A stretch of 64,000 nt of DNA from Longimicrobiales bacterium (GCA_965116645.1 OZ220702.1:481929-545928), one strand, 5' to 3'; numbered from the stretch's first letter, positions 22,542 to 25,799 are shown. The notes: a model not told the origin generated them from the letters alone. Translations and numbers: made by a program.

Positions 22542-22868
22542 CTACTTGAATAGCTCCGCGTGAGTTCCGGCACGTACGAAGTTGATCGAACCGCCGGGTT
22601 TCGGTGAATCATCGACCTGGTAGATCAGAAGGAAGTCCCCGCCGACATGGCATTCCCGGTGATTCGCCCACGCGCCCTTCAGCGCGTGGTCCCTCCGTTC
22701 GGGACCGAGCGGAGCCTCGTTGGCGATGAGGTGGAGCATGATCGCCTTGAGCCGATTCATGTCGTATCGACCCGAACGCGAAAGGCGTTCCCAGTCCTTG
22801 AGGAAGCCCCGAGTGAAGTCCACGCGCCGCGGCGGGCGTGCCCTCTTACTGGTCGCGGGCTTCTTCAA
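22542..22868 (-). CDS. yafQ: YafQ-family (RelE/ParE superfamily) mRNA interferase toxin
   Basis: FTRGFLKDWERLSRSGRYDMNRLKAIMLHLIANEAPLGPERRDHALKGAWANHRECHVGGDFLLIY is the YafQ signature. Confidence 0.8.
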   Translation of the reverse strand: MKKPATSKRARPPRRVDFTRGFLKDWERLSRSGRYDMNRLKAIMLHLIANEAPLGPERRDHALKGAWANHRECHVGGDFLLIYQVDDSPKPGGSINFVRAGTHAELFK

Positions 22869-23127
22869 GCTCCGCGAACATCTCGTCAGCGTTGGCGAAT
22901 CGGGCCGTCCCCCGTCTCATCATCTCCTCCGACTCGGCCATCGCCTGTCGGGTCCGGGCGTTCGGCACCTTGAGTTCCAGGGGGAAAGCCTGATCGACCG
23001 CGATTCGGTGGAAGAACAGCCGCACAGCCTCCGAGGCCGTCAACCCCATCGCCGCGAGCGCCGCCATCGCCTTCCGCTTCATCTCCGTGTCCATGCGGAC
23101 GTGGAGCATCGAACTGTGTGTCTTCAT
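22846..23127 (-). CDS. dinJ: DinJ/RelB-family antitoxin
   Basis: SMLHVRMDTEMKRKAMAALAAMGLTASEAVRLFFHRIAVDQAFPLELKVPN is the DinJ RHH signature. It lies immediately upstream of yafQ. Start taken at the internal ATG 23127. Confidence 0.8.
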   Translation of the reverse strand: MKTHSSMLHVRMDTEMKRKAMAALAAMGLTASEAVRLFFHRIAVDQAFPLELKVPNARTRQAMAESEEMMRRGTARFANADEMFAELEEARDQ

Positions 23128-23164
23128 CGGAAGACCTCCTGTGTCGCAATTGCGATATAAGGTG

Positions 23165-24481
23165 TCATTCCGGCCTGCCACGGTCAACCCGGACGCAGGA
23201 GTCGCAGGCGCGCCCGAAACGGACTTTCTCGTTCGCCTTCCTGCAATGGCCGCAACCGTGCCGGCCGAAGAACCACAGGGCCGGGTCCAGGGCCGCGCAT
23301 GTGCCCTCGATTCCGGCCGGTCCTGCGATATCCGCCTCCGATACGCCATTCGTCCAGGTCTCCTGGATGATGGGCTTGGCCTTCGCGAGCGTGCGCCCCC
23401 GCGTCGCGGTCACGCCCAGATTCTCGGTAGCCCTGCGCACATGAACATCGACCGCGACCGGAATGATTTCGATGCGATCAATCACCGCCCGACCCGGATT
23501 GGCCATCATCCGGACCCACATCGGTCCGATCTTCGGGCCGCGCAGCATCGGAAAGCGGGCGCGCCCGTTGTCGTCGGGGGACTTGAGATCGCTGAGCAGC
23601 TCCCGGGCTTCGCCGCTGCCGTGGTCGATCACGCGGCTCACGGGAGACTTGTGGCCGGAGGACAGGCTCCTTGCGATCCGGTGCCACGCATCCGAGTCGG
23701 GACCGTGCCTCTGGCTGACACGCGCGGCGTTCAACACCCCGGCCAGCGCGCCGACCTCAAGCCCCGCCACATGATGCGGATCGAAGCTCTCGGGTGATCT
23801 CTCGAAGAGGCGTCCCCCCGCGTTCCAGAGCTGGGTGGCGTTCCGCGCCCGGTCCATCGCGGCAATGAAGGTGAGGAAGAGGCGGACGGCGCGGTCGGAA
23901 GCCCTAGGGGAGCGGGCTTGCTTTGTGGTGCGAACGCTGTGCGAGAGGGTCGAATCGTTTTCGGCGTCGAGCACCGCTCGGGAGCTCCGCAGCTGACGTA
24001 CGACCGCGACCTCCGGCATGTAGTCGTGCCAGGGTTGGCCCGGAGCCATGTTGCGCGAGGCCAGGTCGAGGCTACCTCCGTAGAAGTCGTCCGCGATCAG
24101 CTTCGCGAGTCTGGCGGCATGGGAGCGAGCGGGGGAGCGGGGTTGATCCGCCTTTCCGTGGACGTGCAACCTCTCCCGATACCAGGCCTGCTGGCTTCCG
24201 ATTCCCGCGATGCCGGCGAGTGGCCGGTGAACCGCGGCCCCGGCATCGCGCAACCCTTCTTCCAGCCCATGGTCGATGTAGGTCGCGCCGGCGTGGATCT
24301 CGATCAGCCTGCCACGCATCGACGGCACCCGACGCTTCAATTGAGCAAGTACGCGGGCCGACCAGGCGCGCCGGGCCCTGGTCTGGAGATCCGTCAGCGC
24401 GAGTTCGTAGGGATCGATGCGCTGGTCGGGGTAGTAGGGCCGTCCCGCCCAACAGGACGATGGCTGCGAACCAGTTGACAA
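23165..24481 (-). CDS. DUF6884-like region fused to an HhH-GPD-like domain with a C-terminal Cys cluster; start unresolved
   Basis: YYPDQRIDPYELALTDL...RGRLIEIHAGATYIDHGLEEGL recalls DUF6884. FPMLRGPKIGPMWVRMM plus CAALDPALWFFGRHGCGHC...C..C recalls EndoIII-like glycosylases. There is no ATG/GTG between the upstream stop and TTG 24481. This is part of the artefactual 873-aa ORF. Confidence 0.35.
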   Translation of the reverse strand: MSTGSQPSSCWAGRPYYPDQRIDPYELALTDLQTRARRAWSARVLAQLKRRVPSMRGRLIEIHAGATYIDHGLEEGLRDAGAAVHRPLAGIAGIGSQQAWYRERLHVHGKADQPRSPARSHAARLAKLIADDFYGGSLDLASRNMAPGQPWHDYMPEVAVVRQLRSSRAVLDAENDSTLSHSVRTTKQARSPRASDRAVRLFLTFIAAMDRARNATQLWNAGGRLFERSPESFDPHHVAGLEVGALAGVLNAARVSQRHGPDSDAWHRIARSLSSGHKSPVSRVIDHGSGEARELLSDLKSPDDNGRARFPMLRGPKIGPMWVRMMANPGRAVIDRIEIIPVAVDVHVRRATENLGVTATRGRTLAKAKPIIQETWTNGVSEADIAGPAGIEGTCAALDPALWFFGRHGCGHCRKANEKVRFGRACDSCVRVDRGRPE

Positions 24482-24522
24482 GCGTACCGCACTGACGCCG
24501 CCGCCGAAGCCCCCACCCCCCC

Positions 24523-25176
24523 TCAACCCATTCCGTCCAGCACCTCCAGCAATCCCTCGGGCTCCGGCCGTGCCGTATAGTCCACGTCGACCCCCCCCCA
24601 CGCCACGGTCCCGTCCTGCCCGACCACGTACGTCGCCGGAATGGGCAGTTCCCACGTCGTATCGCCATTGAACCGGGCGAGGTCGATCCGCAGGTGATCC
24701 CGATAGATGTCCTGCAGCGCATCGGGCATCCGGAAGACCAGCCCGTACGAGCGTGCGACCCCGTTGCCGCTGTCCATGAGGACGTCGAACCCGATCCCGT
24801 CTTCCCGCGCCCACGCAGCCGCGAAGTCGTGCAGCTGAGGCGACAGGGTCAGCACGGTTGCGCCGCGCGCCGTGAAATCGGGCAGAAGTGACTGGAGAGC
24901 AGCCTGCTCCGCGCGGCAGTAGGGTCACCAGCGGCCGCGAAAGAAGCTGACAACCACAGGGCCTCGCCGCAGGGCCCGCGCGAGCCGGATCGTGTCGTGA
25001 CTCAGATTGGGCCGGGCGAAGAAGGGGGCCCCGTCGCCGGCCTGCACAACGCCGTCGAGGATTCCCGACGCCTTCAGGTCGGCGGTTCCGCGTACGAGTG
25101 TTCTTGTGATGGCAGGGTCGCGCCTGGCTGCTCCGGCTTCCCTGATCCGCTTCAGAGTCTGTGCGAGTGTGGGCAT
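24523..25176 (-). CDS. peroxiredoxin-like (AhpC/TSA, PRX_like2-type) thiol oxidoreductase with in-frame TGA at the first redox position (candidate selenocysteine; alternatively a nonsense pseudogene)
   Basis: ORFs 24925..25404 and 24523..24855 are in the same frame, separated only by TGA 24925-24927. The joined reading is VVVSFFRGRW-[TGA]-PYCRAEQAALQSLLPDFTARGATVLTLSPQ, so the TGA replaces the first Cys of WCPYC. Confidence 0.6.
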
Positions 25177-25323
25177 GGTGAGCGTGCGGAAAACGGGTGA
25201 TCTGAGTCGGTTGCAAGGGGGATACGTTCCCGGACGATGAGAGACGACGCAACCCCACCTTGACAGTGGGTCCGCCCATATCAGGTTGGATGTGTAGCGG
25301 ATCGCCAACCATGGAGGTGCCGA

Positions 25324-25521
25324 ATGAAGTACCGCGTGGCGCTTGAGGAGTCTGACGAGGGCTATTGCGTCTGGGTCCCTGGTCTGCCGGGGTGCGTGTC
25401 GCAAGGGGATACGGAGGAGGAAGCTCTGGAGAACATCGCGGCCGCGCTCCGGGAATACCTGGAGGTGGCGGTGGAGAACGCTGCGGGCACCGTGCTTCGA
25501 GAAATCGAGGTCGCCGTATAG
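25324..25521 (+). CDS. hicB: HicB-family antitoxin (UPF0150), no adjacent HicA
   Basis: MKYRVALEESDEGYCVWVPGLPGCVSQGDTEEEALENIAAALREYLE is the canonical HicB/UPF0150 fold signature. Confidence 0.8.
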   Translation: MKYRVALEESDEGYCVWVPGLPGCVSQGDTEEEALENIAAALREYLEVAVENAAGTVLREIEVAV

Positions 25522-25547
25522 GCTGTGCCGAGGATAGCTGTGGTCCC

Positions 25548-25799
25548 ATGCGAGAAATCACTGCCAAGGAAGCCAAGAACCGGTTCGGCCAGCTCCTCCG
25601 GTCCGCCCAGCAGGGACCCGTGCGCGTCACCCGGAACGGGACGCCGGTGGGCGTGATGCTGTCGGTGGAGCAGTTCGAACGCCTGCGCGGAACCGCGTGG
25701 GACCGGTTGGCCGCGGCGATGGACGCCATGAGCCGGGAGGCAGCCGCCAAAGGCCTGACGCCTGCGGCGTTGGAGTCCCTGTTCACCGAAGAGAGCTGA
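25548..25799 (+). CDS. Phd/YefM-family antitoxin
   Basis: MREITAKEAKNRFGQLLRSAQQGPVRVTRNGTPVGVMLSVEQFERL is the Phd/YefM N-terminal signature. Confidence 0.8.
   Translation: MREITAKEAKNRFGQLLRSAQQGPVRVTRNGTPVGVMLSVEQFERLRGTAWDRLAAAMDAMSREAAAKGLTPAALESLFTEES

Follow-up and report, generated by a model that had tools for sequence, protein, structure and literature searches.

An in-frame TGA in a peroxiredoxin-like gene of a Longimicrobiales bacterium is very probably a selenocysteine codon

A reading frame that is intact apart from one stop codon raises the question of whether the gene is broken or the stop is read as an amino acid. Such a frame was found in a Longimicrobiales bacterium (GCA_965116645.1), in a window of 64,000 nucleotides (nt), by which we mean the whole stretch of DNA that was analysed (OZ220702.1:481929-545928). 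On the minus strand of the window, a frame of 217 codons runs from the ATG at 25176 to a TGA stop at 24523-24525, and its sole interruption is a second TGA at 24925-24927, which lies within the motif FFRGRW-[TGA]-PYCR. A first-pass annotation, made from the sequence of the window, had delimited this frame and regarded the internal TGA as a candidate selenocysteine (Sec) codon in the place of a cysteine (Cys) of a peroxiredoxin-like protein. The same frame was recovered in our analysis, and the computed translation across the junction, GPVVVSFFRGRW-U-PYCRAEQAALQSLLPDF, was identical to the one that had been made by hand. We consider it very probable that the TGA at 24925-24927 is the Sec codon of a thioredoxin-fold protein of the AhpC/TSA superfamily. 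Three features of the gene can be listed:

24523..25176, minus strand: complete selenoprotein gene as predicted, 217 codons and a TGA stop, with a W-U-P-Y-C motif and of the PRX_like2 type (from the frame, Pfam, orthologues over residues 1-217 and AlphaFold)

24925..24927, minus strand: probable Sec codon UGA, residue 84, replacing the N-terminal Cys of CxxC (TGA shared at this column by all 52 Sec forms; Cys in 40 homologues outside the clade and in L094, a Cys form from the same phylum)

24916..24918, minus strand: codon TGC of Cys87, the likely partner of Sec84 in UxxC, aligned with the peroxidatic Cys of BCP/PrxQ (invariant in orthologues; alignment to 2cx3)

The read-through product has 217 residues, with the TGA in the context VVVSFFRGRW-U-PYCRAEQAALQSLLPDF. 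Its residues 47-193 matched the Pfam domain AhpC-TSA (PF00578) at E = 7e-25, with 87.8 bits against a gathering cut-off of 26, and a match to Redoxin was also obtained (E = 2e-12), which bears out the AhpC/TSA thioredoxin fold assigned earlier. A scan of the product against NCBIfam gave sub-threshold matches only, and no curated selenoprotein model covers the protein.

Orthologues were searched for in six frames, reading through stops. Within the genus, the gene was present in 16 of 36 genomes, where it is 69-93% identical over residues 1-217 and contains exactly one TGA in each case. The TGA occupied an identical column in 17 of 17 same-genus orthologues, in the motif F[FY]RGxW-TGA-P[YF]C. 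When 401 genomes of the phylum Gemmatimonadota were sampled, 42 had a match; 41 of these carried exactly one TGA, and the other (G078) carried Cys. All of the 52 Sec forms that were extracted, which are 36-93% identical overall, have [FY][FY]RGxW-TGA-P[YF]C in the same column, and Cys87 was invariant among the orthologues. Conservation of the same TGA column in 52 orthologues, down to an identity of 36%, is far beyond what could be expected by chance. Four metagenomic relatives that had been called as fragments have an open reading frame (ORF) of 83-84 amino acids (aa) directly upstream, and their neighbourhoods differ from one another.

Two loci among the 41 TGA genomes deserve a separate remark. 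The copy at G119:C27:41011-41652 (L097) has one TGA plus one TAG. The match at G196:C1:1613165-1613440 (L100) is partial, covering residues 27-118 with the TGA; a motif scan of that genome found no intact gene, and the match may be a truncated copy.

Selection on the gene was compared on the two sides of the TGA among the 17 congeners. Before the TGA, the pairwise difference was 0.22 at nonsynonymous and 0.37 at synonymous sites; after it, the values were 0.18 and 0.35. Because both kinds of difference are alike on either side, the two halves appear to be translated and to be constrained alike. The sequence following the TGA is thus conserved, under purifying selection like that on the upstream part.

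The homologues outside the clade tell which residue the TGA has replaced. They are 37-47% identical and about 215 aa long, and in 39 of them W83, C84 and P85 were invariant (WCPYC). L094 and others have TGC or TGT at the codon of Sec84. Since C84 is invariant outside the clade, we conclude that the TGA replaces the catalytic Cys. Close orthologues therefore have TGA at this position and more distant homologues have Cys.

We masked the Sec/Cys column and computed a maximum-likelihood tree of the 52 Sec forms together with 40 Cys forms. The Sec forms all lay beyond a single branch with support values of 91/90 and constituted essentially one group with long branches, and this grouping suggests that Sec was kept over a long divergence. 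At least two changes of state between Sec and Cys are needed by the tree. P0021, a Cys form from a metagenome-assembled genome labelled Pseudomonadota, is nested among the Sec forms and could be a reversion from Sec to Cys or a transfer. L094, the Gemmatimonadota Cys form of G078, grouped with the outside Cys clade, and it thus represents a separate lineage and not a reversion.

The components for Sec insertion were all present in the genome, which is a single contig of 4.57 Mb with a G+C content of 68%. A tRNA-Sec with the anticodon UCA was detected by ARAGORN and again by the Rfam model RF01852 (77.9 bits against a gathering score of 47). The genome also has selA (482 bits), selD (380 bits), which carries an in-frame TGA of its own in HGAG-U-ACK, and a full-length selB ORF of 681 aa with its winged-helix domains (GTP_EFTU, domain 2, Beta-barrel_SelB, SelB-wing_2 and SelB-wing_3). 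All of the 16 congeners that hold the gene have selA. In family f2 of the same order, selA was found in none of 12 genomes, and the gene was likewise absent. TGA is at the same time the commonest stop of the genome, where it ends 61% of the 1,289 long ORFs that bear a coding signature, in agreement with the first-pass annotation, which had noticed its ordinary use elsewhere in the window and argued against a global reassignment. As the commonest ordinary stop, which also terminates the gene itself, TGA cannot have been reassigned in this genome.

The genome holds at least five selenoprotein genes, the one interrupted at 24925-24927 included. A second Prx-like selenoprotein candidate lies at C1:458084 (plus strand), about 24 kb before the start of the window, with the motif FYRGHW-U-PYC. 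This paralogue has an apparent N-terminal signal peptide (...ALLAAFLLAAAPAGAQT...), and its UGA is followed, from +21 onward, by a stem of 7 bp with the triloop GUG (UCAGCUC-GUG-GAGCUGA). Three more in-frame TGAs in recognisable selenoprotein contexts are located at C1:740979, C1:1229832 and C1:4403403, all on the minus strand; the contexts are those of a formate dehydrogenase alpha-like FdhA (NCSRA-U-HAPT), a UGSC-type protein (ALAD-U-GSC) and SelD (HGAG-U-ACK). Each of the four other in-frame TGAs is followed by a hairpin with a loop that begins with G (GGUCU or GUG, a tri- or penta-loop). The genome-wide TGA scan was filtered on upstream G+C content at third codon positions (GC3). The gene at 24523-25176, with an upstream GC3 of 0.76, fell below the filter and was missed, so that the list from the scan is not a complete selenoproteome.

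The next part of the evidence is the RNA that follows the UGA, where a bacterial Sec insertion sequence (bSECIS) would be expected. Counting the U of the UGA as +1, three structures can be distinguished in this copy:

24897..24909, minus strand: candidate bSECIS core, +19 to +31, a 5-bp stem GAGCA/UGCUC with the triloop GGC (invariant core, RNAalifold, covariation, absent in Cys forms)

24894..24912, minus strand: possible lower extension, +16 to +34, in this copy a G.U pair, a C/C mismatch and a G-C pair (pair counts in the family)

24862..24917, minus strand: outer GC-rich stem GCCGCGCG...CGCGCGGC, copy-specific and probably not part of the element (minimum free energy (MFE) fold; the 3' arm differs in congeners)

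The hairpin GAGCA-GGC-UGCUC begins 15 nt past the UGA, and 20 nt separate the UGA from the apical loop. In 50 distinct sequences of the family, positions +19 to +22 (GAGC), +24 (G), +28 to +30 (GCU) and +32 (U) were invariant, and +31 was C in 49. The conservation extends to third codon positions, which were fixed in all 50: Glu is GAG, the next codon is CAG or CUG, and Ala93 is GCU, a codon that makes up only 4.5% of the Ala codons in the genome and 6% elsewhere in the gene family. Synonymous diversity among the 17 congeners was lowest in the whole gene at codons 89-94, with 0.10-0.14 against 0.36 overall. The RNAalifold consensus paired +19 to +23 with +27 to +31, a stem of 5 bp around the triloop +24 to +26. 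Pairs were counted on an 8-bp version of the hairpin, whose covariation score of 0.104 exceeded the value of 0.062 for shuffles, was reached by none of 500 shuffles, and lay above all slid controls. The closing pair +23/+27 is A-U in 40 sequences and U-A in 4, and is unpaired in 6. Below the core, the extension pairs are G.U in 27 and A-U in 13 sequences at +18/+32, A-U in 16 and C-G in 8 at +17/+33, and G-C in 36 at +16/+34, and some other members of the family have fully paired stems of 8 bp. In this 8-bp version, 86% of cells were paired, compared to 37-57% when the 3' partners were slid. In all 50 sequences the apical loop reads G[G/U]N, with G always at position 1 and G or U at position 2. 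The Cys homologues retain 0-4 of the 5 core pairs, and L094 has GCG instead of GCU.

The published consensus describes a bSECIS by a loop of 3-9 nt in which one of the first two nucleotides is G (the usual pattern being N1-G-[G|U]-N-N2), by 4-16 bp in the upper stem, by a UGA-loop distance of 16-37 nt and by an MFE of -7.5 kcal/mol or lower (PMC13188914). The hairpin agrees with the rules for loop length, loop motif, stem length (4-5 invariant or compensated pairs) and spacing (PMC13188914), and the first-pass annotation was right that its distance from the UGA is compatible with a bSECIS.

Several observations weigh against this interpretation of the hairpin. With the core enforced, the present copy folds at -6.6 kcal/mol (+10 to +42), short of the cut-off of -7.5, a value that only 34 of the 50 sequences in the family reach. 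Folding of the 71 nt that follow the UGA gave a structure no more stable than those of shuffled sequence (z = -0.25). Because four of the core pairs are invariant, they yield no covariation, and only one or two pairs show compensation. The hairpin overlaps the conserved residues E90, A93 and L94, so that part of the conservation is due to the protein. A scan of the region with Rfam gave no matching or SECIS-like family and only chance matches with E-values of about 1 or higher. Finally, a slipped register pairs an equal share of cells (86%), although without an excess of covariation. With the fold energy unremarkable, the case for the hairpin relies on the comparative data and not on energy. 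The fold after the UGA thus includes a conserved SECIS-like hairpin, but its stability is no better than that of shuffled sequence.

The slipped register is the one proposed in the first-pass annotation, GGAG(C)AG/GCUG/CUCUCC. The sequence is indeed present at that place, but 214 of 500 shuffles reached the score of this register and it is broken in 8 sequences that have U at +23. The comparative data better support the 5-bp stem with the GGC triloop, and we prefer this register, while slippage between both is conceivable. The longer GC stem GCCGCGCG...CGCGCGGC suggested at the same time does exist in the MFE fold of this copy, where the longer context folds at -26.7 kcal/mol through it. However, this outer stem is not conserved in the congeners and was rejected as a part of the element.

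Public gene calls give a different picture of the gene. In a collection of 5.8 billion proteins, the nearest matches (58-83% identity) were about 120 aa long and covered only the C-terminal 55% of the query, and the full-length matches of about 215 aa were at most 47% identical and named peroxiredoxin-like family protein. The public records of the clade are C-terminal fragments of 119-133 aa that were called after the TGA, with the N-terminal 83-84 aa as a separate hypothetical ORF. Such fragment records are P0002-P0005, P0016, P0041, P0057, P0059, P0074 and P0116. The matches are limited to the C-terminus because the gene calls split the gene at the in-frame TGA, and the misannotation of the gene is systematic across databases.

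As an alternative, the UGA could be used without Sec, either by near-cognate read-through with Trp or Cys, or by termination and re-initiation to give products of 83 aa and about 110-130 aa. The small and thermodynamically unremarkable hairpin is compatible with this, as are the GTG or ATG starts that gene callers find downstream. However, the codon replaces the catalytic Cys of CxxC, the classic position of Sec, in a genome whose Sec system is complete and seems to be functional, and where hairpins of a similar kind accompany other selenoprotein genes. A split here would cut through the active-site loop that joins strand 74-78 to helix 85-96 and would disrupt a single compact domain. The downstream starts that gene callers use also vary between species, as the range of fragment lengths indicates. 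We therefore regard the use of this UGA without Sec as improbable, although it is the best of the alternatives.

More improbable still is a pseudogene, in which a Prx-like gene of the Cys type, located in an accessory region under decay, would have been struck by a TGC-to-TGA nonsense mutation. This was the alternative named in the first-pass annotation. The neighbourhood is indeed slightly lower in G+C content and poorly conserved, with a RelB antitoxin and ORFs without a Pfam match; the gene occurs in only 16 of the 36 congeners, and public calls show it in fragments. Nevertheless, the same TGA in 52 orthologues down to 36% identity, with no other stops or frameshifts, and the equal purifying selection on both sides of it lead us to reject such a mutation. 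A pseudogene would not preserve a downstream hairpin at synonymous sites. Nor are the orthologues assembly copies of one sequence, as they include 50 distinct 63-mers in different neighbourhoods. The weakest alternative, an error of sequencing or assembly or a lineage-wide reassignment of TGA to sense, has nothing but the bare presence of an in-frame stop in its favour and deserves almost no credence, because the TGA is found independently in dozens of assemblies and ends this gene together with 61% of the confident long ORFs. To these three alternatives together we leave only a small share of the probability.

If the TGA is read as Sec, as we believe, the structure of the product can be considered. 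An AlphaFold model built on 40 sequences had a predicted local distance difference test (pLDDT) score of 96.4 and a predicted template-modelling (pTM) score of 0.92. In the model, two N-terminal helices (4-18 and 21-36), an extension of about 45 residues, precede a thioredoxin/peroxiredoxin (Trx/Prx) fold, and U84 follows strand 74-78 and sits at the N-terminus of helix 85-96. The top matches in the PDB by Foldseek were peroxiredoxins of the BCP/PrxQ/AhpE kind and ResA, with E-values of about 1e-11 to 1e-13 and a target-normalised TM score of up to 0.89; the matches to ResA were at about 1e-11. The closest relative of known structure in the sequence comparison was 3hdc, a member of the thioredoxin family with an identical WCPYCRDE motif (E = 2.8e-11), and ResA 4nmu was matched at E = 4e-7. 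In the alignment to the BCP 2cx3, U84 stands opposite the Ser of SxxC (SPVC), and C87, which is in helix 85-96, stands opposite the peroxidatic Cys. The position of the peroxidatic Cys in strict peroxiredoxins is thus occupied as expected, but their (T/S)xxC motif is not, as U84 takes the position of Thr/Ser. The N-terminus (MPTLAQTLKRIREAGAARRDPAITR...) contains no visible hydrophobic segment, and no signal-peptide program was run on it; the protein is accordingly likely to be cytoplasmic.

The exposed nucleophile in proteins of the Trx-fold suprafamily is the first residue of the CxxC motif, which makes Sec84 the likely attacking residue, forming a selenenylsulfide with Cys87. The first-pass annotation had placed Sec where the resolving or attacking Cys of CxxC is expected; this holds for the first residue of CxxC as the nucleophile of the Trx fold, but not for the peroxidatic Cys of peroxiredoxins, which corresponds to C87. 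With Sec at the N-terminal nucleophilic position of a CxxC of the TlpA/ResA type, a selenol/thiol oxidoreductase appears likelier than a classical peroxidase. Judged from its sequence, the protein is best described as a predicted Prx-like/TlpA-like selenol-thiol oxidoreductase.

As we infer it, actual Sec insertion would proceed with SelB-GTP and Sec-tRNA(Sec) binding to the mRNA hairpin that starts 15 nt past the UGA. SelB, competing with release factor 2, would then place Sec in the A site of the ribosome. The resulting protein would bear Sec84-Pro-Tyr-Cys87 at the N-terminus of the first helix of the Trx fold, and Sec84 would act as an exposed nucleophile cycling with Cys87 via a selenenylsulfide. 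The substrate and the direction of the redox reaction can be proposed only provisionally: a disulfide, a sulfenate and possibly a hydroperoxide are possible substrates, and the enzyme is probably no classical TxxC peroxidase.

Trx-fold selenoproteins with UxxC have been documented before, including a Prx-like thiol:disulfide oxidoreductase (PF00578) and the Prx-like 1, 2 and 3 families of the GOS (Global Ocean Sampling) data (PMC2398784, PMC13188914). The former, with UxxC or UxxU, was tabled as 'predicted with high confidence' (PMC13188914), and the Prx-like 1 and Prx-like 3 families came from the GOS and Sargasso Sea selenoproteomes (PMC2398784, PMC1088965). Like these bacterial selenoproteins, the present protein has an AhpC/TSA or Redoxin domain, Sec at the first position of UxxC and abundant Cys homologues, and its bSECIS candidate is directly after the UGA inside the coding region. 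It falls within the definition of the PF00578 UxxC family, with the published representatives compared by their descriptions only. Unlike the published Prx-like families, it belongs to a Gemmatimonadota clade in which nearly all members carry Sec (41 against 1 with Cys in the 401-genome sample), has the two-helix N-terminal extension of about 45 residues, and is followed by a very short hairpin.

A cd02970/PRX_like2 peroxiredoxin-like family protein has been tabled as a UxxS selenoprotein, and SelL is a eukaryotic Prx-like protein with UxxU (PMC13188914). Both share the fold and the position of the Sec motif with our protein, whose nearest named Cys homologues are likewise called peroxiredoxin-like family protein, but the motif here is UxxC. 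With 23.6 bits, the protein scored well below the cut-off of 120 for NF040769, 'SelL-related redox protein', and does not belong to this family.

The resemblance to TlpA/ResA lies in the Trx fold with Prx-like insertions, in the nucleophile at the N-terminal position of CxxC (WCxxCxxE in ResA, WCPYCR-E in 3hdc) and in the Foldseek E-values of about 1e-11 to 1e-12. TlpA and ResA are Cys enzymes that are usually exported or membrane-anchored, whereas our protein has Sec and no hydrophobic N-terminus. BCP/PrxQ and AhpE (3hjp, 5epf, 2cx3 and 1xvw) were the best structural matches, and Cys87 is at the position of their peroxidatic Cys; in contrast to them, the Thr/Ser of (T/S)xxC is replaced by Sec84, which makes redox chemistry of the CxxC type likely and not that of a Thr-assisted peroxidase. 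As for the RNA, the hairpin resembles the E. coli fdhF-type bSECIS and the consensus in its place just 3' of the UGA, its A-GGC-U loop and an upper stem of at least 4 bp. It differs from the fdhF type in a much shorter stem (5 bp and a wobble pair), a weaker energy and the lack of an identified bulged U.

A Trx-fold UxxC protein is of the commonest selenoprotein class, and hence is the kind of protein that specialists would expect. There is no mention of Gemmatimonadetes in the 2026 selenoprotein review (PMC13188914) or in the 2016 comparative-genomics paper (PMC5029168). We suggest tentatively, and with rather more doubt than confidence, that the clade is an undescribed PRX_like2-type UxxC subfamily in which Sec is nearly fixed across Gemmatimonadota and which uses a minimal bSECIS (a 5-bp stem with a triloop beginning with G). 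If this were true, a hairpin below the standard energy cut-off of SECIS predictors in the genus would explain the missing full-length public records, Longimicrobiales and Gemmatimonadota would be a consistently Sec-using lineage with an under-annotated selenoproteome, and the family would offer a natural test case for a minimal SelB-binding element. The finding is of value chiefly for annotation, for the distribution of Sec use across Gemmatimonadota and for the minimal requirements of SECIS elements, and no new mechanism is involved. An apparently broken gene becomes a predicted functional selenoprotein gene, by which its annotation is corrected, and a comparative set of 50 sequences is provided for a very small bSECIS.

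The surroundings of the gene are variable. The DUF6884 gene and the RelB antitoxin lie downstream and ORFs without annotation lie upstream, and the local G+C content is slightly lower (0.61-0.66). Together with its patchy distribution, the variable flanks indicate that the gene behaves as a stand-alone accessory gene. Synteny was considered as a clue to function and was abandoned, since none but the closest relatives share the flanking genes and conservation does not extend to the neighbouring DUF6884 gene. The neighbouring genes were not found in the flanks (±1.5-2.5 kb) of other orthologous loci. The ORF with the RelB antitoxin domain is at 22846-23349 of the window (minus strand). On the downstream side, RelB immediately follows the selenoprotein gene in the close relative G021 (L015), where no DUF6884 gene intervenes. 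An ORF of 873 aa at 23165-25786 (minus strand), in another frame and overlapping the gene, was rejected as a shadow ORF of high-GC sequence, in which only the DUF6884 portion has a domain match. That match, at about 24173-24430 (E = 5e-17), points to a genuine DUF6884 gene that adjoins the selenoprotein gene on its downstream side.

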